Virus genome (UHGV): UHGV-1366990
Length of the DNA: 64,000 nt
From: a virus
Direction: 5' to 3' (one strand)
Part shown: positions 5,001 to 56,320 of the stretch, one piece after another
How the letters are laid out: the number at the start of each line of letters is the position of its first letter
Position numbering within the stretch: position 1 is the stretch's first letter
Notes under the pieces: generated by a model
The model's database searches: none
Told to the model about the DNA's origin: nothing
The model's input: only the letters and a program-made list of their open reading frames with translations
Translations under genes and position numbers: made by a program

Positions 5001-6872
5001 ATTACCACGTACACGTACACCGACAGGACGACCACCACCATGACTGGTGAGCAGATCGTTGAAACGCAGGTAATCCCATACATGCGCAAAACGAACATCA
5101 ACTTCGAAGCCACAGGTCTGCGTCCGTTCACTCGTGTGTATCCGTTCTTCTCTGGACGTGATGTGAGCGCGTACTGTACCCCAAACGGTGGTGTACTGGG
5201 TGGTGCGTTGAACACTGACGCCAACGGTAACATCAAAGGTGTGTTTGCGGTTCCTCAGAACGAGACTATCAAGTTTAACACGGGTGACAACGTTTTCCGT
5301 CTGACTGACAGTCCTGTGGATAGCAAGTCTGCTGATGATACCCTGACCAATGCTGAGGCTGTTCATAAGTCCTTCGGCAAGAAACAGGGCATCCAGAAGA
5401 CTTATGTCAATACTCGCGTCCTGGGATACACTGCGACCAAGTCTACGGAAAACAAAACAGAGACGGTTGAAGTCGCGAAGTGGAAAGATCCTATCGCCCA
5501 GTCCTTCATGGTTGCCACCAATATCGGCGGCGAATACATCGAAGGGATTGAAGTCTTCTTCTCCACCAAGTCCCGTGATATCCCGATCACTCTGGAAATC
5601 CGTGAGATGAGCAATGGTCTGCCAGCGACGACTGTCGTCACTCGTAAGACTCTGAATCCATCAGAAGTTTCCACCTCCACAGACTCTTCTGTGCCGACGA
5701 TGTTCAAGTTTGATTATCCTGTGTATCTGCAGGCGCAGACTGAGTTCGCGATCGTACTCCTGGCCAACACTCAGGACTACAACGCATACATCGCAGAGAT
5801 GGGCAAGAAGAACTTGCTGACCAACGAGTTCATTGCCAAACAGCCGTACACTGGCGTGTTCTTCACATCTTCAAATGGTACGACCTGGACTCCAAACCAG
5901 ACTGCCGATATGAAGTTCCGTGTATATCGCTGTAACTTCTCCGCTGGTTCAAACATCGTGACCTTCGATGCTAAAGTCGGTCCGAAGATCCGCCCTCTGG
6001 GTCTGAATACCGTGAAATGTGTCAACGGTTCTTCAACTGTTACTGTGTACGCTCCGGGGCATGGCCTGACTGCGGGTGAAAGTGTTACTCTGTCTGGGTT
6101 GACAGGTGGTTGCGGTTTCACTCCTGAGCAACTGAACGCTCAACACACTGTGACTGATGCGACGTTCACGACATTCAAATTCGTTCTGAGTTCCAACGCC
6201 GACTCCGACGGTCAGATTGGTGGTGAGGCGGCTTCTTTCCTAGGCAACTACTTGGTAGACATGTTCTACGCAAGCGTCACCAATTCAGCCCTGGAAGGAT
6301 CTGTGTTGAAACTGGAATACCGCTATCGCGATGCGACCTCCAACTCATTCTCTGATTGGGTTGAGTTCGAATCCGATACGGACGTGTCTCTGCCGACGGA
6401 AGGTATCTATCGTCAGGTGGGCGACTTCCAGGTTCGTGCAACCATGACTCGCAACGAGAGTAATGTCTACACGGCTCCAATGATCGACGGTGATGATTTC
6501 ACTATCATCTTCAACACCTACGGTGTGGATCCGTTTGAAGATGTGTTCAGCTATGTGACCAAGGATATCGGATTCGATAACCCTTGCACCACTCTGAAGC
6601 AATACTTCGGCGCGATGCTACCTTCTCAGTCTTCAATGACTGTGCAGGTTAAACTGCTACGCGCAGGTCAGGAGATGGATAACGTGGCATGGGAAACTGT
6701 GACACCGACATCCCCTCTGGTCAATGACGGTTCTGCATTCTTCGAATATGAGTATGACAAGACTGTAGACAGCACCAATCCTTTCGTTGGCCTGAAGATC
6801 CGCCTGCTGGTCAGAGGCAACCGCATAGCACCGCCGTCATTCAAAGATTTCCGTTTGATTGCTCTGGCATAA
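2034..6872 (+). CDS. large virion structural protein (about 1612 aa; tail fibre/baseplate-associated)
   Basis: ORF 1863..6872; first ATG with GGAG Shine-Dalgarno is at 2034 (MQEMNL...); position upstream of neck genes. Confidence 0.7.
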   Translation: MQEMNLNRRPYWDDWNPEKRFSRILFRPAPIKVQTRELNQIQTIFQDQLEKLGNHLFKDGSMVIPGGLTITNTAVSMKFTLAGGSEFTDLEGISELYVLGKDNNAKARVLSLERYPAEPDTMYAILEITESGSSDGFEAGDNLYFNTYDVNDNFIRVGYGVADTVGGSIVARMTKGVYFVRGMFLDVEPTTLIVDNASNSTSHRIGFKVTETIVTEAEDESLFSNAQGTPNSKAPGAHRLRVDLVLSRYGYDEEVADFVELAKVKDGRVQSMVTQSTYNILEDAMAQRTYETNGDYNVSTHQIDLREHLKQNNNGGVYTPAEGGDESKFVAVMKPGISYVRGRRIENLGEELVIIDKARDTDILNNNPVAVSTGNYLVSKNSKGVPVVSRTIRYKFLNASSDVQATALLISAERSGTEFRLYMRDLVVTGDMGTVTKVAYEESGTTMFSCELESNQFSQSSAIDLIFPLPVFGVKTLAPTGTIDINYTVLRSNKITLNAAGAGSISAPLGYSFSPEFSLYSAAKADGTAAQFDISSGLSLAGTPVGSALQISLGAGYANQSINLLTLMVRTTATIKTKTVTEATETVTFTAAASAQLGNHDGYKLISVKNANGADVTSNFTLDGGQRDAAYYLSNLISSAGAISGTFTVVYQYFAHSSGDFFTADSYSSINYPDIPNYVSSSSGTVYGLADSLDFRPKITSGASDTDMVRPNTAIILDAEYYLPRIDAVYLADNGVFNVARGVSSNNLASPAIPDNGMRLYELMIPPYTANIDDIQIRTIDNRRYTMRDIGKLETRISNVEYYTSLSQLESSAMSQQVFDPITGNPRFKNGIAADPFKDFRLIDDLSADWVGSIDTDNGRLRPFVQQNAIDLTPVGWNNVQDGMVVCNYTREISVRQDYATTTINVNPYAVFNWEGFLKLNPTTDYWFENYYVTPRVINETINTRGAIKEGSVYGTWRTVSVSERVWEPHGAGGVWWGYRYRTTVSTRDITTYTYTDRTTTTMTGEQIVETQVIPYMRKTNINFEATGLRPFTRVYPFFSGRDVSAYCTPNGGVLGGALNTDANGNIKGVFAVPQNETIKFNTGDNVFRLTDSPVDSKSADDTLTNAEAVHKSFGKKQGIQKTYVNTRVLGYTATKSTENKTETVEVAKWKDPIAQSFMVATNIGGEYIEGIEVFFSTKSRDIPITLEIREMSNGLPATTVVTRKTLNPSEVSTSTDSSVPTMFKFDYPVYLQAQTEFAIVLLANTQDYNAYIAEMGKKNLLTNEFIAKQPYTGVFFTSSNGTTWTPNQTADMKFRVYRCNFSAGSNIVTFDAKVGPKIRPLGLNTVKCVNGSSTVTVYAPGHGLTAGESVTLSGLTGGCGFTPEQLNAQHTVTDATFTTFKFVLSSNADSDGQIGGEAASFLGNYLVDMFYASVTNSALEGSVLKLEYRYRDATSNSFSDWVEFESDTDVSLPTEGIYRQVGDFQVRATMTRNESNVYTAPMIDGDDFTIIFNTYGVDPFEDVFSYVTKDIGFDNPCTTLKQYFGAMLPSQSSMTVQVKLLRAGQEMDNVAWETVTPTSPLVNDGSAFFEYEYDKTVDSTNPFVGLKIRLLVRGNRIAPPSFKDFRLIALA

Positions 6873-6882
6873 GTAGTATTAA

Positions 6883-6906
6883 CAAGGCGGGGTTGCCCCG
6901 CCATTA
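6883..6906 (+). terminator. stem-loop GGCGGGG-TTG-CCCCGCC after the structural gene
   Basis: Perfect 7-bp GC stem just after the stop at 6872; weak U-tract. Confidence 0.4.
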
Positions 6907-6921
6907 ACAGAGGATATTATC

Positions 6922-7170
6922 ATGCGTGGTGTAAAAGTACAAGGGCATGCATCGATGATGAGAAGTAGCTCTTGCCCTGGGGCTATCATCTGCACAGACA
7001 ATGCTGCCGGTTTGGCAGCACTGAACGCTCGTCGAAATCAGGAAGAAAAGGACAGAACTATTGCAGCGCAGGCAGCGCAAATAGATCAACTGACAGCGAT
7101 GGTACAACTCATGGCGGAACACCTCGGGATTGAACTCCCGTCAGGAGGCCAAGATGGCAACCCAAACTGA
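6922..7170 (+). CDS. hypothetical protein (82 aa)
   Basis: ATG preceded by AGAGGA; ORF track. Confidence 0.45.
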   Translation: MRGVKVQGHASMMRSSSCPGAIICTDNAAGLAALNARRNQEEKDRTIAAQAAQIDQLTAMVQLMAEHLGIELPSGGQDGNPN

Positions 7171-7492
7171 CACTGTGATCGATGTTAAAGCGATCCTCAC
7201 CGGGGTGCTGACGGCGACGATAGTCTCTGTTGGCTCGGTTGTTTGGATGATGGGTAAATTTGAGAATCGCCTTGATGTGGTTGAGCGTGACTCCAACAAG
7301 GTCGACCTGATCCTCACCAAGGTGAACGATATGAATGAGAAGATTGCTGTGTTAAACACAGACGTTAACTACGTCAAGCAGAACGTTGCTGAGTTGAAAC
7401 TCAATAGCAACAGTCTATCCGACGACGTTCGCACTTTACGTATCACCGTCGCTGATATCCAGAGCAACAAGGGGAATGGCAATGGCCGTTAA
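7154..7492 (+). CDS. membrane-anchored coiled-coil protein (112 aa)
   Basis: Start MATQTD with CAGGAGG upstream; N-terminal hydrophobic helix (LTGVLTATIVSVGSVVWMM) then heptad-like region. Confidence 0.5.
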   Translation: MATQTDTVIDVKAILTGVLTATIVSVGSVVWMMGKFENRLDVVERDSNKVDLILTKVNDMNEKIAVLNTDVNYVKQNVAELKLNSNSLSDDVRTLRITVADIQSNKGNGNGR

Positions 7493-8234
7493 TTCTATTG
7501 TTGATCGTAAAGGATTTATGAATTACATTCTCAAGAAATTGGGGGCACCTGTAATTCAGATCAACCTTGACCCAACGCAAGTTTCGGATGCTGTAGACGA
7601 TGCTCTACAGAAGTTTTGGGAGTATCATCGTGATGGCAGTCAGGACGCATTCTTTGTTCACCAGGTGACTGAAGAAACTATCACCAACGGTTACATCGAA
7701 TTCCCCAAAGACATCGACGACGTGGTTGAAGTCATCGTTGGCCCTCCGATTGAATCGATCGGTAACTGGGCAACCCCTCAATGGCAGATGGCCCAAGCCA
7801 TGTTGGTACCAAAGGCCGCCCTCGTTTCCATCCGCTTGGTCGACTATGTTTCAATGCAACAGCGTTTGTCTGACATCACCAGTGTGCTGAACGTGAAGCG
7901 CACCTTCGTTTACAAGAAATTCCAGCGCAAACTCTACCCACAATTCGCCCTGATAAAGGACGAGGTGTTGGCGTTCAAATGCTTCCAGAACATCGACCCA
8001 GAGGTTGAGGGTAATGAAGAAGCATGGAATGATATGTGGCTGAAGGCATATGCAACTGCGTTGGTCAAGCGCCGCTGGGCAGAAGTGCTCAAGAAGGCAA
8101 GAGGCATCCGTCTCCCTGGCGGTATCGAGCTGGATGGCGATAGTATGTTCAGTGAGGCTGAAGCGGAGATCGAGCGTTTAGAGGAAGAATTGCGTACTGG
8201 TCAGCAGTACCCTATCGACTTCTACATGGGATAA
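7476..8234 (+). CDS. neck protein, T4 gp13/gp14-like
   Basis: N-terminus ILKKLGAPVIQINLDPTQV resembles the recalled T4 neck protein ILRRLGAPIINVELTPDQI; synteny upstream of terminase. Confidence 0.65.
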   Translation: MAMAVNSIVDRKGFMNYILKKLGAPVIQINLDPTQVSDAVDDALQKFWEYHRDGSQDAFFVHQVTEETITNGYIEFPKDIDDVVEVIVGPPIESIGNWATPQWQMAQAMLVPKAALVSIRLVDYVSMQQRLSDITSVLNVKRTFVYKKFQRKLYPQFALIKDEVLAFKCFQNIDPEVEGNEEAWNDMWLKAYATALVKRRWAEVLKKARGIRLPGGIELDGDSMFSEAEAEIERLEEELRTGQQYPIDFYMG

Positions 8235-15159: not shown

Positions 15160-15207
15160 TCTAAACATAAGCAGTACGACACCAACTTGAAACGAAGGAT
15201 CTATATC

Positions 15208-40714: not shown

Positions 40715-40930
40715 ATGATACTGAAAGAATGTTTTACCGACCTGAAGGCGACGTCTGAAAGTATTCCGGCTTGCATTCAGAACTATGCTCCAAAGGATGT
40801 GCTCTTGGCTCAGCTGGAGCAGTCTCGTGAGTTTATCAACAATATGCTGGACTCTGTAAAGACGCGCATCGAAGCCGCTGATGAGTCTGAACTTAACCCT
40901 TACGCACAAGGCGAAGAGAACAATGATTGA
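40715..40930 (+). CDS. hypothetical acidic protein (71 aa)
   Basis: ATG ORF; stop overlaps the next start (ATGA). Confidence 0.35.
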   Translation: MILKECFTDLKATSESIPACIQNYAPKDVLLAQLEQSREFINNMLDSVKTRIEAADESELNPYAQGEENND

Positions 40931-43124
40931 ATCATTAGAATTTAAGAATGCGGTTGCGACTGCTGCCCCGTCCAACCATGTAATCGTTGTAGACATTTCC
41001 GGCTCTATGTACCGTGCGCTCCCTGAAGTCCGTAAGCATCTGAAGGAGAACCTGCCTTCCCTGGTGAAACCGGAAGACACTGTGAGTGTTCTATACTTCT
41101 CATCCAAAGGCGACTTTGGCACTGTGTTCGCTGGCCGTCAGATCAATGCAGCATCCGACCTGAGCGAAATCAACAATCTGATTGACCGTTTCCTGCAACC
41201 ATCCGGCTGTACTGGTTTCGTTGAGCCATTGAAACTGGCGATGGACACTGCTCGTGGCCTGAAGAAGCCTGGCTATGTCAACAACCTGGCGTTCATGACT
41301 GACGGGTATGACAACTGCTGGCGTACCAACGAAATTCTACTGGTTGCTGAGACCCTGCCATTTGCTTTTGATAACATTACATTTATCGAATATGGCTGGT
41401 ACTGTAACCGCGAACTGCTGGCGCAGATGGCCGAACGCTCTGGTGCTACTCACGTGTTTGCCGAAGGTCAGACCGAATACCAGACCGAGCTGGAAAACGT
41501 GCTGAAGTCATCAGTGCCGAAGGTGAAAGTTGATGTCCCAGTCATCTACACCCATGCCATCTACGTCGAAAACGGTGTGGCAACAGTACTGGCGGTGCAG
41601 GACGATGACTCTCACCCGGTCGGCTATGTGAGCATCCCTGAGAGCGTCACCAAGCTGTGGGTTGTAAACCCTAACATGATCGACCAGCTTGATGCGCTGG
41701 CGGATATCCAGGCGGCATACGTGCTGGCGTTCTACGGCGTACACATCATGGACGCGGACCTGGTGTGGGCTGCACTGAAGAAAACAGGTGACGTTCGCTT
41801 CATCAAACAGTACAGCAACTGCTTCACCAAGCAGGACTACTCCAACATCAAGAACGATCTGGTTCAGGCGATTGTTGAAGACCAGCTGCGCGGCGTTGAC
41901 GGTATTGACTATGACCTGGTTCCGGCTGAAGATGCGACCACCGTCGTTGATGTGCTGACGTACCTGGCTGAAGCTGGTGTGCCTGTTGCTACCAAGCATC
42001 CGATGTTCTCCTATAAGAGTATCGGGCGCGGTACTGTGCAGAAAACCGACGACACCGAAGACAAGCTGGCAGAACAGATCGCGAATGCTCAGTCCAAAGA
42101 AGAGCGTAAAGCCCTGGCTCTCAAGCTGGCAGAGCACGAAGAGTGGAACCCGACGTTCGAACCTACCAACGACCTGGGTGTTGTGCCAATCAGTGATTTG
42201 GTCTATAACTTCGAGCGCCCGAACATCAGTGTGCGTACAATTCAACACGGTACTGTGGCTGTGCCTGAATTCGCACAGAAGAAGTTTGGCCTGCCTGAAG
42301 AACTGGACACTTTCCAGTGGCGCAACTACACCATCGTCAAAGACGGTATCATCAACGTGAAGACTCTGCCGTTCAAGGCTGATATCGAAGTTGTACAGAA
42401 GCTGATCGAAATGGGCGTCCACGTGTTTGGTGGTCCGGAAGTGTTTGTCCTGAACCTGGAAAGCGTACCGCTGGTCAACCGCGCCATGGTCAAGAACATC
42501 AGTGCTGCTCAGTTCTTTGCGGATAATGTCCGTCTGGAAGCCCTGAAAGGTAAGCAGAAGGTGCTGAAGTTCTATCGAGACGCCCTGGTTGGTAAGGGTA
42601 ACGCCAAAGGCCTGGCAGTACAGTACGGCGCTGAGGCGGCCGAGTTCCTGTCCTCCTACGGCATCCGCGATTACGGCTTCTCACCGAAGACTGAGACCAA
42701 AGAGTCTACCGACTTCTACATGAGCCGTGAGCTGAACGTGAAGATCGCCGGGGCGTCTTCACTACCGAGCATCGCGGCAGTACAGAAGAAGATCGCAGAG
42801 AACAAGAAACTCAATGCTGGTGACTTGTTCATCGCCAATGCTCTGAAAGAGTACGAAGCATTCGTGAAGTCTCCTATGATCACTGCCGTGCCTGAAGCCT
42901 TACAGAAACAGCTGATCGAAAACTGGATCGACGCTGCTGCCAAGGCGGCCATCACCGAAGTCCGTGCCCTGAACAAGACGCTGTCTAAAGTGGTGTATGG
43001 TATCGTTGCTGGTCATGGCTGGTTCACCGACCTCGACCTGGAAGAGTCCACCATGGAAGTTGAAGTGGATGGCGTGAAGTACAAGGTCACTGCCGAACTG
43101 ACAGAGAAAGAAATCAAAATCTAA
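40923..43124 (+). CDS. von Willebrand factor A (vWA) domain protein (733 aa)
   Basis: MIDAS-like VIVVDISGSM ... MTDGYDN near the N-terminus; the C-terminal 500 aa are unassigned. Confidence 0.7.
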   Translation: MIESLEFKNAVATAAPSNHVIVVDISGSMYRALPEVRKHLKENLPSLVKPEDTVSVLYFSSKGDFGTVFAGRQINAASDLSEINNLIDRFLQPSGCTGFVEPLKLAMDTARGLKKPGYVNNLAFMTDGYDNCWRTNEILLVAETLPFAFDNITFIEYGWYCNRELLAQMAERSGATHVFAEGQTEYQTELENVLKSSVPKVKVDVPVIYTHAIYVENGVATVLAVQDDDSHPVGYVSIPESVTKLWVVNPNMIDQLDALADIQAAYVLAFYGVHIMDADLVWAALKKTGDVRFIKQYSNCFTKQDYSNIKNDLVQAIVEDQLRGVDGIDYDLVPAEDATTVVDVLTYLAEAGVPVATKHPMFSYKSIGRGTVQKTDDTEDKLAEQIANAQSKEERKALALKLAEHEEWNPTFEPTNDLGVVPISDLVYNFERPNISVRTIQHGTVAVPEFAQKKFGLPEELDTFQWRNYTIVKDGIINVKTLPFKADIEVVQKLIEMGVHVFGGPEVFVLNLESVPLVNRAMVKNISAAQFFADNVRLEALKGKQKVLKFYRDALVGKGNAKGLAVQYGAEAAEFLSSYGIRDYGFSPKTETKESTDFYMSRELNVKIAGASSLPSIAAVQKKIAENKKLNAGDLFIANALKEYEAFVKSPMITAVPEALQKQLIENWIDAAAKAAITEVRALNKTLSKVVYGIVAGHGWFTDLDLEESTMEVEVDGVKYKVTAELTEKEIKI

Positions 43125-43166: not shown

Positions 43167-43490
43167 ATGAGCAGTAAACCAACATATGTTGAAGTCATGC
43201 GTCATCTGGCTCAGTACGCCACCGACAATCTGAATATGGATCTGTGGCGTGACGATGACAAGCGCAAATTGCTGGACGACGTGGCATCTCAGAACGAGGA
43301 CGCCCTGGACAAGCTGGCTGGCCTCCGTACCAAGAAAGACCTCGGCGGTGATGAACTGGACGCTATCGAAATCGTAATGGACCTCGAAGAAGAGTTTCAG
43401 GTCGAAATCGACGACGGCTGGCTGGGTAGTAAAGGCGATGACCCGACCATGGGTGAACTCGCTGAACTCGTGGTTGCCCTGCGCAAATAA
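43167..43490 (+). CDS. acyl-carrier-protein-like protein with DSL to DEL substitution
   Basis: DLGGDELDAIEIVMDLEEEFQVEIDD aligns with E. coli ACP [26 protein letters not shown], but the Ser is Glu. Confidence 0.65.
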   Translation: MSSKPTYVEVMRHLAQYATDNLNMDLWRDDDKRKLLDDVASQNEDALDKLAGLRTKKDLGGDELDAIEIVMDLEEEFQVEIDDGWLGSKGDDPTMGELAELVVALRK

Positions 43491-43493
43491 CAG

Positions 43494-43522
43494 AAGTCCC
43501 CAACAAACGTTGGGGATTTTTA
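43494..43522 (+). terminator. terminator TCCCCAAC-AAAC-GTTGGGGA-TTTTT
   Basis: 8-bp stem plus U-tract. Confidence 0.65.
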
Positions 43523-43532
43523 CTTTTAGGGG

Positions 43533-43561
43533 TTTACTTCCTCTAAGGAATGTCCTATTAT
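43533..43561 (+). promoter_or_regulatory. sigma70-like early promoter (TTTACT-17 nt-TATTAT)
   Basis: Same TTTACTTC -35 context as the other cassettes; followed by TTCAATAA. Confidence 0.45.
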
Positions 43562-43612: not shown

Positions 43613-43852
43613 ATGAAGAACAAAATGGTCGAAACTTCAGTAGAGATTGATCGCAATTGGGGATTGCTCCGCGCTAAAGGGTTCCGCCGTGTGTATGCGA
43701 CCAAAGAAGTCTACGCACAGCGTCGTGACGTTATCATCAGCAAGAAAGGCAAAGAGTGGGTTGCTGAAGAAGTTGATGTCGAGACAGGCATCGTAGGAAA
43801 GGTAAAGGCCAAGGCCGCGATCCTCTTCGCTCTTCTGAAGCACATCAGTTAA
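43613..43852 (+). CDS. hypothetical basic protein (79 aa)
   Basis: ATG in the conserved AGGTAAGATTATATCATG start region. Confidence 0.5.
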   Translation: MKNKMVETSVEIDRNWGLLRAKGFRRVYATKEVYAQRRDVIISKKGKEWVAEEVDVETGIVGKVKAKAAILFALLKHIS

Positions 43853-43911
43853 TTCTATAACTTTGGGCGGGGTATGATTACCCCGTCTATTTGAAACCAA
43901 GAGACTATATC

Positions 43912-44286
43912 ATGAAAAAGTTAATCCTCGCTGTTGCCCTGCTGGGCGCTTCCTTTGCTGCTGTTTCCGCCCCTCCTGTCATCACCGGAGTGTCTACCAA
44001 CGGTGTTTATGCTTTCAAGGCGTATGGCCAAGACCTCGTTCTGTATAAGAACGGGAAGATGATTGAGCGCTGCGTATCAGACGACGTGAATCGTGGGATC
44101 GACAATCAGGGTAGCCCATACGTCCTGGACATCTATTCCTGCTCCAACGGGACGAAGTCCTTTGGCGTCAAGACCTTTGGCAACGTCGCCGACGGTGGCT
44201 GGGGCTTCATGTTCGAAACCCGCAACCACCACCCGGTCAAGACCATGCAAGAAGAGTTCTTGATCTCTGTCGGGGGTACGTTATGA
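43912..44286 (+). CDS. exported protein with signal peptide (124 aa)
   Basis: MKKLILAVALLGASFAAVSA-PP: signal peptide with AxA site; conserved start region. Confidence 0.6.
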   Translation: MKKLILAVALLGASFAAVSAPPVITGVSTNGVYAFKAYGQDLVLYKNGKMIERCVSDDVNRGIDNQGSPYVLDIYSCSNGTKSFGVKTFGNVADGGWGFMFETRNHHPVKTMQEEFLISVGGTL

Positions 44287-44570
44287 CACCATCAGAGAGA
44301 AGTTCTATCAAGGAGATGATCAGAGACAAGGCGTGTGTTGGCCATACTCAGTCAGAGAACATCTTGCGCCTGATGGTAATAAAGAACGATATCGACAACA
44401 GCCGATTCCAAACAGCGTTGTATGGCATGCTGGAGTTTATATCGCGGTCATCTGATCTTGGCACGGTCCGATATCTTGACGATCTGACCAAGCTGCTGAA
44501 CACGGGCGGGGAAACTTTCGACGCCGCTCGTATCCTGATTGACGGTGGACCTGAAGAAGACGAGGTATAA
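44283..44570 (+). CDS. hypothetical protein (95 aa)
   Basis: ATGA overlap with the upstream gene. Confidence 0.5.
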   Translation: MTPSERSSIKEMIRDKACVGHTQSENILRLMVIKNDIDNSRFQTALYGMLEFISRSSDLGTVRYLDDLTKLLNTGGETFDAARILIDGGPEEDEV

Positions 44571-44762
44571 TTTGGATAAAGAATTGGTTTGGGAAATTGT
44601 GAAGGGTGTCCTAGTAATAATCGCGGTGGTTTTCATCTTGGGTGGGAACTTCTTCTATTGGTTATTCCGATCCGACCAGAAACGTCGCGAACGCAAGGAG
44701 AAAGAGAGAAAGGATCGATGGATGCGCTAACTAAGGGATAACCCTATATCCCGAGGTGTGTC

Positions 44763-45212
44763 ATGTTCCTTACATCTTTTATTGACTGGTTGAACATCAT
44801 TAACGGCCTGAGGATTCCTGTTGGGAACCTCGGGCTTTCTCGTTCTTCTATGCCGCAAATCGATGCCGACAAACAAGAAGATTTTCACAAATATCTTGAA
44901 GACAACGGCGTGTCCATAGATGCTGTGCAAGTGCCCATCAAAATGCTTCGTCTTACCCAGAACGAAATCAACAAGATGAAGGTCTGGAAGATCATGAAGA
45001 ACATCAGAAATAAGAAACCTATGGGTCGAGTTTGGGTGTCTTCTGACAATTACGTTGTTGACGGTTCTCACCGATTTGTCGCTGCGTTGAACATGGACGG
45101 CAAACAGCGCATGAAGGTCTACAAAGTTGATTTGCCAGCGATGGAATTTGTTAAACTCGCTAAACAGTTTCAGGGTGTGCGATACAGAACGGTCAGTGAT
45201 ACCCGTTTCTGA
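44763..45212 (+). CDS. ParB/sulfiredoxin-like nuclease domain protein
   Basis: VSSDNYVVDGSHRFVAA matches the ParB N-domain DGxHR core; GAGGTG Shine-Dalgarno. Confidence 0.5.
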   Translation: MFLTSFIDWLNIINGLRIPVGNLGLSRSSMPQIDADKQEDFHKYLEDNGVSIDAVQVPIKMLRLTQNEINKMKVWKIMKNIRNKKPMGRVWVSSDNYVVDGSHRFVAALNMDGKQRMKVYKVDLPAMEFVKLAKQFQGVRYRTVSDTRF

Positions 45213-45291
45213 ATACGATAGTTTATTGAATCCCTTTACTCAACATGGTGAGCCGCCTATCATTTCATCCAATGAAATAAGGAGAATCGCC

Positions 45292-45978
45292 ATGAAACGT
45301 TTAATCCTCGGGGTTGTGCTGGCTGGTCTGGCATTACCCGCCGCTGCCAAGCTGAACTCCACAGGTGATAAACTGTGGTCCGACCTTTCCTATTGTGCTG
45401 GGTTCTCCCAGGCGGTTGCCATCGACAAGTCTGGTTCCATAGAGAACTTCGCTGAACTCTGGAACACAGGCAACGTCTCCACTGCTGTCGTCAATGCCGG
45501 AATTGAGTTCAACCGTTACAAACAGGGAGCCTATAACCTCAAGGGCTACCTCAATGACGACGAATTTAACCGTGGAGGCATGGAGGCTGGCGATTTAATC
45601 ATGACTGGGCGTATGGGCACCCAAGGCCGGATGACCGTAAGACAGTGCCGTTCGCTCCCTTCTCCGGCATTACAGAAGGGTGTGCAGGTTGGTCGCCGCC
45701 ACCTGAACCTCATCAACGATGGCAACCAGTGCGTCAAAGTATTCGAATACAGCGCCACGCAGACCTCTGATCGCGTCCTGAAGAAGGAATGGCGTACTCG
45801 CGCTCTCGGTCTCAGAGCCTGGCTGGTTGAGAACGATTATTACTTTGAAGACAGGGTTCAGAACGGTCTGAAAGACCTGGCCACGAATCTGAGCGTGAAC
45901 CTTGATGATCCTCGCATGTCGCGCGAACTCCAGCAGACTCGTGTTGACTGCGACAATATGATGAAGGAGAACGAGTGA
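45292..45978 (+). CDS. exported protein with signal peptide (228 aa)
   Basis: MKRLILGVVLAGLALPAAA-K signal peptide; AAGGAGAA Shine-Dalgarno. Confidence 0.6.
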   Translation: MKRLILGVVLAGLALPAAAKLNSTGDKLWSDLSYCAGFSQAVAIDKSGSIENFAELWNTGNVSTAVVNAGIEFNRYKQGAYNLKGYLNDDEFNRGGMEAGDLIMTGRMGTQGRMTVRQCRSLPSPALQKGVQVGRRHLNLINDGNQCVKVFEYSATQTSDRVLKKEWRTRALGLRAWLVENDYYFEDRVQNGLKDLATNLSVNLDDPRMSRELQQTRVDCDNMMKENE

Positions 45979-46304
45979 TGAAATGTAAAATCCTGCTCTT
46001 GTTGGTACTGATAGCCGGGTGTGTAAACGCCGCGCCACCGTCCAAACTGAACACATGTGTGGCATGGATGGAGACGTATCAGCAGTTCCACCCAGATGAC
46101 AAGGATACATCTATCCTCCTGTCCGACTTCGAGGGGGAGCTGAAGCGCCTTGATCTGTTCAGTGTTGATCAGATAGAGAATGCGCTGGATCTTCCCATGA
46201 TGCTGACTGCGGCTGATAACAGTCCACAAACGAAGAAAGACCTGATGTATTGTCGGGGGATTGCCCAGGACTTTGTCGGATTTCAAAATAAAGTTTCGGG
46301 TTAA
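45978..46304 (+). CDS. putative lipoprotein (108 aa)
   Basis: MKCKILLLLVLIAGC: lipobox L-I-A-G-C; overlaps the upstream stop. Confidence 0.55.
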   Translation: MKCKILLLLVLIAGCVNAAPPSKLNTCVAWMETYQQFHPDDKDTSILLSDFEGELKRLDLFSVDQIENALDLPMMLTAADNSPQTKKDLMYCRGIAQDFVGFQNKVSG

Positions 46305-47266: not shown

Positions 47267-47929
47267 ATGGAAAAACTTTATTCTATTATCGTCGGTCCTG
47301 ATCCTGACGGATTATTCTTCGCCCCGTTGTCTTATATTGCCCACGCCCGTATCGGTAGCCATTACGCATATTGCACACGTGGCCACGACGGTTCCAATAT
47401 CCTCCATTATAACCGCATGAACGATTTCCTGGCACTTCAACCAGAAGATGTTGTGCTGGCGCGTCGCGTGTTCATCGACTTCAACGCTATGCACAACAAC
47501 GAAATTGACGCTCGCTATCATGCCATGCGTTCTATGGAAGGGGGAGACTGCATTTATCGCATCGACCATTTTAGTGAGTTTACCGAATGTATTGATTGGT
47601 TCGTTTCAGAAAAGACGTTGGGTGAAAGAATCGTCACAACTCCGTGGGCGCATGCGGAACAACTTCGTGTGTCTACCGATGCGTACAAAGAAGTCGACAA
47701 TCTGTGCAACAAGTTCCGCATCTCGGTGACCTGTAATCAAGACCTGGGCGAAGAGATACAATGGACAGCTGAGTCTCCTCATTTCAGTGGCCTGGTGATG
47801 ACGGCCGAAACCCGTTCCCGTGCTGTTGTCCAGTTAGTACTCTGGGCGTTCTACCAGCGCACCCCGTTCTCATACATGGGACAGAAAGAGATTGATGAAC
47901 TCCTGAAGTCTCACGCGGTGGAGGTGTAA
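47267..47929 (+). CDS. hypothetical protein (220 aa)
   Basis: ATG in the conserved GAGAGACTATATCATG start region. Confidence 0.55.
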   Translation: MEKLYSIIVGPDPDGLFFAPLSYIAHARIGSHYAYCTRGHDGSNILHYNRMNDFLALQPEDVVLARRVFIDFNAMHNNEIDARYHAMRSMEGGDCIYRIDHFSEFTECIDWFVSEKTLGERIVTTPWAHAEQLRVSTDAYKEVDNLCNKFRISVTCNQDLGEEIQWTAESPHFSGLVMTAETRSRAVVQLVLWAFYQRTPFSYMGQKEIDELLKSHAVEV

Positions 47930-51387: not shown

Positions 51388-51432
51388 AGTTTCATTCCTC
51401 TTTCTATAAAACCAGTTTGGGATATTTATATC

Positions 51433-56155: not shown

Positions 56156-56320
56156 ATGAACTACGAACAAATTAAACTCGCAATACTGATCTTTGCATGC
56201 ATCATTGACATCGTTGCATTTTCTCGTGAAGTCGAAAGGAAAAACTACCTGAAATCACTGGGGTATCTCGGGTTCTCTGTCTGGTTCTGTTATCTACTTG
56301 CAGGTCAAATCCTGAAATGA
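56156..56320 (+). CDS. small two-helix membrane protein (54 aa; holin-like candidate)
   Basis: Two hydrophobic segments; translationally coupled at both ends; below the ORF-track cutoff. Confidence 0.35.
   Translation: MNYEQIKLAILIFACIIDIVAFSREVERKNYLKSLGYLGFSVWFCYLLAGQILK

Follow-up and report, generated by a model that had tools for sequence, protein, structure and literature searches.

Gene content of the locus

The interval between positions 43912 and 46304 was analysed within a window of 64 kb, i.e. the whole stretch of 64,000 nucleotides taken from the UHGV virus genome UHGV-1366990. It contains six genes, named here g2 to g7, and is described together with the upstream gene g1 (Table 1). 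The 3.2 kb around the interval are 98.8% identical to Escherichia phage PC3 and match 277 phage records, all from Vi1-like myoviruses (Ackermannviridae) with Salmonella, Klebsiella, Escherichia, Dickeya, Serratia, Shigella and Enterobacter as hosts. By this similarity, the source is a Vi1-like E. coli phage of the family Ackermannviridae.

Table 1. Genes of the studied block and the promoter upstream of it, in window coordinates
Feature	Position	Strand	Description
sigma-70-like promoter	43528..43561	+	GTTTAC/TTTACT - 17 nt - TATTAT; found by consensus scan; upstream of g1 to g7
g1	43613..43852	+	79 amino acids, cytoplasmic, phrog_804; heads the block; adjoins the acyl carrier protein gene in relatives
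g2	43912..44286	+	124 amino acids, signal-peptide-type N-terminus, 2 Cys; phrog_5474
g3	44283..44570	+	95 amino acids, cytoplasmic, phrog_4458; 4-nt ATGA overlap with g2
g4	44572..44730	+	52 amino acids, TTG start, GAGG Shine-Dalgarno, one predicted transmembrane segment; phrog_14464 'membrane protein'
g5	44763..45212	+	149 amino acids, isoelectric point (pI) 9.9, stand-alone ParB/sulfiredoxin-fold protein (predicted); contains VVDGSHRF
g6	45292..45978	+	228 amino acids, predicted exported, all-helical, two-domain protein, 4 conserved Cys; 'i-spanin' in some records
g7	45978..46304	+	108 amino acids, acidic, predicted exported, lipobox LIAGC, 2 invariant Cys; phrog_3843; 'o-spanin' or 'Rz-like spanin' in records

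The original prediction, based on the sequence alone, had described the interval as a cluster of four genes: two for signal-peptide proteins (43912 and 45292), one for a ParB-like nuclease with a DGSHR core (44763) and one for a lipoprotein (45978), the last two being translationally coupled. All four genes are present, and both signal-like N-termini were found as placed; two more genes, g3 at 44283 and g4 at 44572, had been overlooked. Here and below, signal-peptide calls are rule-based, according to the classical n-h-c and -3/-1 rules.

In order to evaluate the clustering, every open reading frame (ORF) of at least 45 amino acids preceded by a Shine-Dalgarno sequence, on both strands of the 64-kb window, was scanned for export features by a crude rule. 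Nine loci were flagged. The four clear ones, corresponding to the annotated genes g2, g4, g6 and g7, all fall within these 2.4 kb, so the concentration of exported proteins is real and above chance; the other five are minus-strand ORFs or ORFs of 52-54 amino acids, taken without comparison to annotation. The predicted cluster therefore stands as a concentration, but it is heterogeneous in composition, since g6 and g7 are conserved and g2 and g4 are patchy. Searches against Pfam, NCBIfam and PADLOC gave no significant match for any of the eight proteins analysed, and PHROGs returned only family-internal groups, apart from a weak ParB-like match of g5 and the 'Rz-like spanin' name attached to g7.

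Gene anatomy, fold, distribution and the non-conservation of the anchors were established directly. From them, with somewhat less than even confidence, the interval is tentatively read as three unrelated things, namely the g6-g7 pair, the virion protein g5, and the accessory envelope proteins g2 and g4, rather than as one system.

The larger exported protein, g6

The g6 gene is preceded by an AAGGAG Shine-Dalgarno sequence, and its product starts with MKRLILGVVLAGLALPAAA↓K, where the arrow marks the putative cleavage site. The uncharged N-terminal run is only 16 residues long, with Pro at -3; the anchor run of lambda Rz has about 23 residues. Small residues at -3 and -1 are kept in every g6 homolog examined (AAA↓K, ATA↓K, AVA↓K, ASA↓K, AHA↓G, ASA↓A, ANA↓G, AWS↓E, VHA↓R), i.e. 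the N-terminal design is stable although the sequence drifts. By these rules the g6 N-terminus appears to be of the signal-peptide type rather than a membrane anchor, an uncleaved or signal-arrest-release (SAR) type being still conceivable. The authors of the LIMEstone1 paper, using SignalP, reported a 'putative signal peptide' both on the g6 ortholog (95% identical) and on the g7 ortholog.

The predicted model of g6 is a compact helical bundle made up of two domains, with no extended coiled coil. The alignment shows four Cys conserved among full-length homologs, and the protein is basic (pI 8.3). It was detected in 271 phage records, with at least 80% identity in all of them, while HMMER, run exhaustively against 1.8 billion representative proteins, returned 10 members of the g6 family. 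Foldseek comparison with predicted viral structures found Ackermannviridae orthologs only. The N-terminal domain occurs alone in loci of Serratia phage 3M-like and Erwinia phages, as proteins of 126 and 165 amino acids.

The smaller partner, g7, and its lipobox

The product of g7 starts with MKCKILLLLVLIAGC, a canonical lipobox LIAG-C with Val at +2, as the original prediction had recognised. When every frame of the 64-kb window was scanned for a lipobox, with any start codon allowed, g7 was the sole credible lipoprotein ORF; the remainder of the PC3 genome yielded no second credible one, also when the rule was relaxed.

For comparison, 25 homologs with 35-95% identity were aligned, and 37 protein clusters and 26 genomic loci were inspected. 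The gene was found in 282 phage records, with identity mostly between 60 and 80%. The mature protein (94 amino acids, 5 Pro or 5.3%, pI 4.75) is well conserved, with 22 invariant positions that include the cysteines C27 and C92. The lipobox Cys, in the form [LIM]AGC or IVGC, is found in 6 of the 37 clusters and 7 of the 26 loci, and is absent from the remaining 31 clusters and 19 loci, Vi01 included. Lipobox-bearing sequences are limited to close relatives (PC3, Marshall, Maynard, MK-13, P46FS4 and CECAV_050), and Ser replaces the Cys in a cluster that is 93% identical. The Vi01 protein reads MRNIIFLLFFSMLASFQVMA↓TPASK, with a signal-peptidase-I site and no lipobox Cys; the orthologs from Klebsiella, Serratia, Dickeya and Erwinia phages have plain signal peptides with sites of the form A↓(A/T/V/E)P. 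All aligned sequences share the Ala at -1 of the signal-peptidase-I site, and the window protein retains it too (VNA↓AP), three residues past the lipobox Cys.

Because the lipobox is sparse while the mature protein is conserved, the lipid anchor is taken to be a recent and labile gain of one subclade, not a property of the family. A single Cys substitution in that subclade would have created the lipobox, probably tethering g7 to the inner face of the outer membrane.

Linkage and distribution of the pair

The translational coupling claimed for the last two genes was borne out: the stop codon of g6 overlaps the start codon of g7 by one nucleotide (TGATG). An overlap of 1-4 nt is present in 23 of the 25 loci from which both genes were recovered, the other two having a gap of 66 nt. 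All records of g6 and g7 belong to Ackermannviridae infecting Enterobacterales, and the pair was found in every enterobacterial member of the family that was sampled. In four distant phage contigs carrying g5, three of which are 145-168 kb long, neither gene was detected beside it. Single sequences and profiles of g5, g6 and g7, compared with all PDB chains, gave nothing meaningful.

On sequence evidence, g6 and g7 are an orphan pair of helical, Sec-exported proteins specific to the family, no relatives having been detected outside it. Since the two genes are coupled and strictly co-occur, and their products are of complementary charge, we infer a 1:1 periplasmic g6-g7 complex, both partners of which would be soluble in most of the family; complex formation, timing and all functions discussed here have this same inferential standing.

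Evaluation of the spanin annotation

Public records give spanin names to both genes. The g6 and g7 orthologs are called i-spanin and o-spanin in the record of phage Marshall, and g7 is called 'Rz-like spanin' in RefSeq and many later records, after PHROG 3843. A comparative paper of 2024 counts an 'Rz-like spanin' and a 'putative i-spanin' among the Vi01-like core genes. In the survey of Kongari et al. 2018 (PMC6139136), from the Young laboratory, the Marshall pair constitutes a singleton spanin family, with the longest periplasmic length of the set (300 residues). The same survey reports Vi01, SFP10, SJ2, SJ3, Maynard, CBA120, PhaxI, ECML-4, AG3 and Dickeya RC-2014 as spanin-less; all of these phages carry orthologs of g6-g7. 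The presence of the lipobox in Marshall and its absence from Vi01, CBA120 and others probably explain these uneven calls. Maynard is not explained in this way, as its g7 N-terminus is identical to that of Marshall, both having the lipobox. The survey table is inconsistent on this point, with Marshall entered as spanin-bearing and Maynard as spanin-less despite the same N-terminus.

A canonical two-component spanin, in which g6 as i-spanin and g7 as o-spanin would link the inner membrane to the outer one and bring about their fusion as the final step of lysis, has several features on its side besides the Marshall annotation, the PHROG 3843 name and the entry of the Marshall pair in the survey database. 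As in lambda Rz/Rz1 and T4 PseT.3/PseT.2, a larger upstream gene and a smaller downstream one overlap and are translationally coupled, in an order that fits the separated or overlapped architectures. Both products are envelope-directed and have periplasmic Cys, and in this phage g7 has a lipoprotein signal, with Val at +2, in the sole lipoprotein ORF of the genome.

Other features differ. An i-spanin is held by a single, uncleaved transmembrane anchor at its N-terminus, in type II topology (N-in, C-out). The g6 N-terminus, 16 residues long and with conserved small residues at -3 and -1, appears to be of a cleavable signal-peptide type and not a transmembrane anchor, and the model shows compact bundles instead of the long coiled coils of spanins. 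Rz1 is short and proline-rich, and Rz1-like o-spanins, with known exceptions, are largely unstructured when mature; g7 is long for such a protein (94 amino acids when mature), acidic and proline-poor (5% Pro), and most of its orthologs have no lipobox despite the conserved mature protein. No endolysin or holin gene adjoins g6-g7, i.e. there is no lysis cassette, and no sequence or fold similarity of the pair to other spanin families was detected. Moreover, the Marshall pair is a singleton outlier in the survey, and the laboratory that listed it calls Vi01, CBA120, PhaxI, ECML-4, SFP10, AG3, RC-2014 and even Maynard spanin-less. As two compact, soluble proteins would be unable to bridge the periplasm, the pair was not filed as a canonical spanin, a reading that we consider very unlikely. 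Tested feature by feature across the family, the spanin label fails.

While the genes themselves had already been annotated, the failure of the label, the lipobox as a novelty of one subclade, the orphan helical pair and its virion-borne ParB-fold neighbour are new here.

A ParB/sulfiredoxin-fold protein associated with virions

The AlphaFold2 model of g5 has a predicted local distance difference test (pLDDT) score of 84.5. Foldseek comparison of the model with the PDB gave ParB-N, sulfiredoxin, Noc, SbnI, SerK, PadC or Atu1540 as the top 44 matches (probability up to 1.00, best E 1e-3, about 90 aligned residues), all of which, except the uncharacterised Atu1540, we take to be proteins of the ParB/sulfiredoxin (Srx) fold. 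Orthologs are named 'ParB/Sulfiredoxin domain-containing' in UniRef. All 21 aligned homologs, with identities down to 39%, have an unchanged DGSHR motif, a nucleotide/phosphate loop of the Gly-x-x-Arg type that follows the central strands; the motifs MPQ, L(T/A)QNExNK and R..S are likewise invariant. A family-specific N-terminal extension of 57 amino acids contains an invariant PxGxL...R..MPQ. Core fold and DGSHR loop are thus common to g5 and to the ParB-N/sulfiredoxin superfamily, i.e. pNOB8 ParB-N, Noc, Srx, the SerK/SbnI kinases and PadC.

Sequence searches are far less informative. Pfam and NCBIfam do not recognise g5, with Pfam ParBc unmatched even at E<=1, and comparison with the PDB by sequence and profile gave nothing. 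The ParB-like PHROG match (E 5e-4) aligns to part of profiles 740 and 3431 positions long; g5 thus resembles the ParB-type modules of large multi-domain phage proteins, which are likewise found in virions. In the model, the 149 amino acids are accounted for by extension and core, with no helix-turn-helix and no C-terminal dimerisation domain, and the CTP (cytidine triphosphate) boxes of ParB, GERRxR and ENLQR, are not recognisable in the alignment. The modelled fold identifies g5 as a single-domain member of the ParB/Srx superfamily and not as a partition ParB. The fold proposed in the original prediction was therefore confirmed; the nuclease activity, inherited with the domain name, is unsupported, the structural neighbours of known function being known as CTP switches, kinases and sulfiredoxin, not as nucleases.

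Evidence for the presence of g5 in virions spans two genera and is taken from the proteomics of others on orthologs. The record of LIMEstone1 ORF101 describes a 'confirmed structural protein' with a computed mass of 17.30 kDa; the table of the LIMEstone1 paper, whose numbering is offset by one, lists a 17.31-kDa 'unknown structural protein' of matching mass, with 35.6% coverage and 5 unique peptides. Sajous1 gp192 was represented by 11 spectra in virions purified on caesium chloride. Neither g6 nor g7 is listed in either proteome. We suggest that g5 would be packaged in the virion, probably in association with DNA, would bind nucleotides and would be co-injected with the DNA.

Is g5 functionally tied to the exported genes next to it? 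It might form one module with them, for instance as a cytoplasmic ParB-like nuclease or sensor under the control of the periplasmic pair, and the adjacency of g5, g6 and g7 is indeed kept from Kuttervirus to Erwinia phage Bue1. Distribution points the other way: 432 phage records carry g5, among them those of Vibrio, Aeromonas, Stenotrophomonas, Ralstonia and Pseudomonas phages, and in distant loci it is directly followed by other genes, e.g. a helicase gene. As g6 and g7 were not detected at the four distant g5 loci, g5 is considered independent of the exported genes. Neither a signal nor a membrane segment is present in g5, which is found in virions in which the pair is unlisted, and g6 has its own Shine-Dalgarno sequence after a spacer of 80 nt. 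A single module is highly improbable, and the original description of the ParB-like protein as unexplained beside the exported genes no longer holds, since it occurs without them in distant phages and its orthologs are found in virions.

The possibility that g5 is one of the kinases of ViI thymidine hypermodification was rejected, as g5 corresponds to Vi01_117c and not to gp67 or gp243. At least five different names are given to g5 orthologs in GenBank: 'cytidyltransferase', 'PLxRFG domain-containing protein', 'putative structural protein', 'phage associated protein' and 'hypothetical protein'.

Accessory envelope genes

The product of g2 starts with MKKLILAVALLGASFAAVSA↓PP, with a VSA↓PP site. 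Pro at +1 disfavours cleavage by signal peptidase, so that SFA↓A is the likelier cleavage site. By tblastn, g2 was found in 105 of about 280 records, mostly from Klebsiella, Dickeya and Agtrevirus-like phages, and is absent from Vi01. The small protein encoded by g4, with an acidic N-terminal end and a C-terminal tail rich in Lys and Arg, is predicted to be oriented N-out/C-in and was found in 59 of about 280 phage records. Its only outside signal is a sub-threshold match to Phage_holin_2_4 (E 0.04; cut-off 30 bits). A role as family-wide holin was rejected, given its presence in 59 records only and the sub-threshold Pfam match. Both g2 and g4 fit patchy accessory envelope proteins, of the usual variable, envelope-directed kind.

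The g1/g2 junction (43852-43912) varies among relatives. An 'RNA polymerase ADP-ribosylase' gene is inserted in MK-13 and CECAV_050, a denV pyrimidine-dimer glycosylase gene in Vi01, LIMEstone1, P46FS4 and EspM4VN, and neither is present in the window. These differing insertions indicate a plastic accessory region and recombination hotspot.

In Erwinia phage Bue1, a run of small membrane proteins is encoded downstream of the g7 ortholog (6292-7731 of the locus). In one of these (86 amino acids) a transmembrane segment lies at the C-terminus, another (64 amino acids) has two transmembrane segments, and a lipoprotein of 259 amino acids (LLAGC) comes next. This neighbourhood gathers envelope-directed genes in several genera.

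Promoters and start-site motifs

The sigma-70-like promoter of Table 1 is preceded by a hairpin terminator at 43497-43516. The intergenic sequence is near-identical in Dickeya phage LIMEstone1, where it is annotated as 'putative early promoter' upstream of the g1 ortholog. These in silico data weakly suggest that the block would be expressed early. A search for T4-type late promoters (TATAAATA) gave one match in 64 kb, on the opposite strand, vs 0.6 expected.

A conserved motif abutting start codons, TTGAAA-n-GAAGGAAC-TATATC-ATG, was observed at window positions 15202, 23673, 24465, 43607 (g1), 43906 (g2), 47261 and 58362, and in a weaker form at 51427. Its core, ACTATATCATG, has 7 occurrences with up to one mismatch, all on the + strand, vs 0.72 expected. 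A leader of about 50 nt, CGTATA(A/C)TTC..CCATAAGCAGTACGACACCAAC, is common to sites 15202, 24465 and 58362, and a GC hairpin and a T-run lie just ahead of the motif at g2 and at the gene at 47267. The motif may be a phage promoter with a conserved 5' untranslated region, or a site of translational control; a RegA-like repressor is encoded by the phage.

Possible roles of the g6-g7 pair

Superinfection exclusion or lysis regulation, the roles that the original prediction had put forward, are reasonable candidates. Exported proteins of virulent phages not involved in lysis mostly serve superinfection exclusion or receptor masking, as do T4 Spackle, T5 Llp and Cor. Spackle (gp61.3) is a periplasmic superinfection-exclusion protein which inhibits the gp5 tail lysozyme. 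A gp5-like tail lysozyme is present in the family, and lysis-from-without at high multiplicity has been reported for Ackermannviridae phages; for these reasons, a Spackle-like role in envelope protection was put first for the pair, as a possibility that is in itself rather unlikely. The pair would work at the envelope of the host cell, probably starting soon after infection, and would shield the infected cell from lysis-from-without or from superinfection by related phages, as Spackle does against the tail lysozyme. Spackle is likewise a small signal-peptide protein of a large virulent T4-related myovirus, encoded apart from the lysis genes. It differs in that g6-g7 is a two-protein unit, and no sequence similarity was found by profile searches against all PDB chains. 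A second analogy, of topology only, is offered by the MliC/PliC-type inhibitors, which are lipid-anchored in some lineages and soluble in the periplasm in others, and would place the action in the periplasm, close to the outer membrane; these are, however, beta-barrel host proteins, to which g7 has no similarity.

Several points weigh against this picture. The rule-based reading of the g6 N-terminus does not separate a signal peptide from a SAR domain or an uncleaved anchor; the N-terminus of T4 RI resembles a signal peptide and yet stays uncleaved. COILS marks a coiled coil in the LIMEstone1 ortholog of g6. The promoter scan is not above shuffles (8 found vs 5.9 expected), and g5, encoded in the same block, must also be available at virion assembly; its detection in virion preparations is no proof of injection. 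Exclusion genes are usually accessory and fast-evolving, so the constraint on g6 and its ubiquity fit an essential function in the lytic cycle better. A lysis role keeps its appeal, given that neither a further lipoprotein nor a recognisable spanin is encoded by this phage. The literature searched, on lysis, spanins, periplasmic proteins and transcript timing in Ackermannviridae, contains no experiment on g6, g7, g2 or g4.

Lysis of a non-canonical kind could take two forms. The soluble pair might weaken the outer membrane or its links to the cell wall, in place of the spanins that the family lacks, or it might act as a periplasmic antiholin timing lysis, like T4 RI. The family has no recognisable spanin, and the authors of a Kuttervirus paper report that they found no holin gene. 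All enterobacterial members sampled carry the pair, and g6 is strongly constrained, with 80% identity or more in 271 records. It is restricted to members infecting Enterobacterales, not being detected beside g5 in the distant contigs of 145-168 kb, and tethering of g7 to the outer membrane is tolerated in a subclade. On the other hand, neither protein is similar in sequence or fold to any lysis protein, features of amphipathic cationic peptides are missing and g7 is acidic, and the block has a single annotated promoter, an early one. We know of no holin partner. Overall, such a role is judged unlikely.

Equally unlikely is a part in the periplasmic takeover of the host, apart from lysis and exclusion, for instance by neutralising a periplasmic or outer-membrane factor of the host such as a nuclease, protease, stress sensor or defence component. 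It would suit an orphan family with no detectable relatives, made up of exported, disulfide-bonded, binder-like helical bundles and encoded in a block that forms an accessory-gene hotspot in relatives (ADP-ribosylase, denV). There is no known candidate target, no match to the defence and anti-defence models of PADLOC was found, and the strong conservation across at least five host genera argues for a conserved target, which may equally be a phage component.

The elements of the locus may also be combined. The g6-g7 soluble heterodimer would then be the missing device for outer-membrane disruption or lysis control, working without spanning the envelope and becoming tethered in the lipobox subclade, while g5 would be a nucleotide switch delivered by the virion and loading on the incoming genome; this joint reading is quite unlikely.

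The assignment has practical weight, as the pair is carried by about 280 sequenced Ackermannviridae genomes, including those of phages applied or suggested for the biocontrol of Salmonella, E. coli O157, Klebsiella and Dickeya. The spanin label goes back to a single phage, whose copy incidentally has a lipobox, and reached many other records by homology. If it is wrong, neither a holin nor a way through the outer membrane is known for the family, and the exported pair becomes the first candidate. If the Spackle-like role is correct, and the pair is a device for exclusion or envelope protection, it matters for the design of phage cocktails, in which related phages would exclude one another. The interest of the pair is high only if it is the missing outer-membrane or lysis-control device of the family. 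As for g5, a virion-borne protein with a single ParB-fold domain would be a small and tractable model for the ParB-type modules of very large phage proteins.

Genes surrounding the block

According to the annotation of MK-13, the upstream side of the window contains structural, replication and recombination, NAD (nicotinamide adenine dinucleotide)-salvage, von Willebrand-A (vWA) and acyl carrier protein genes, and the block is followed downstream by genes for a HU-like protein and then a helicase; nearly all genes lie on the + strand. The vWA-domain protein (747 amino acids, 40881-43124) is encoded beside the acyl carrier protein gene (43167-43490). Its orthologs are among the virion proteins of LIMEstone1 (6 peptides, 11% coverage) and Sajous1 (1 spectrum), so that the block is flanked by two virion-associated proteins which do not look structural, vWA and g5. 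Finally, an ORF of 54 amino acids at 56156-56320, flagged by the export scan, has a Shine-Dalgarno sequence and a hydrophobic N-terminal segment (MNYEQIKLAILIFACIIDIVAF...), and may encode a small membrane protein.

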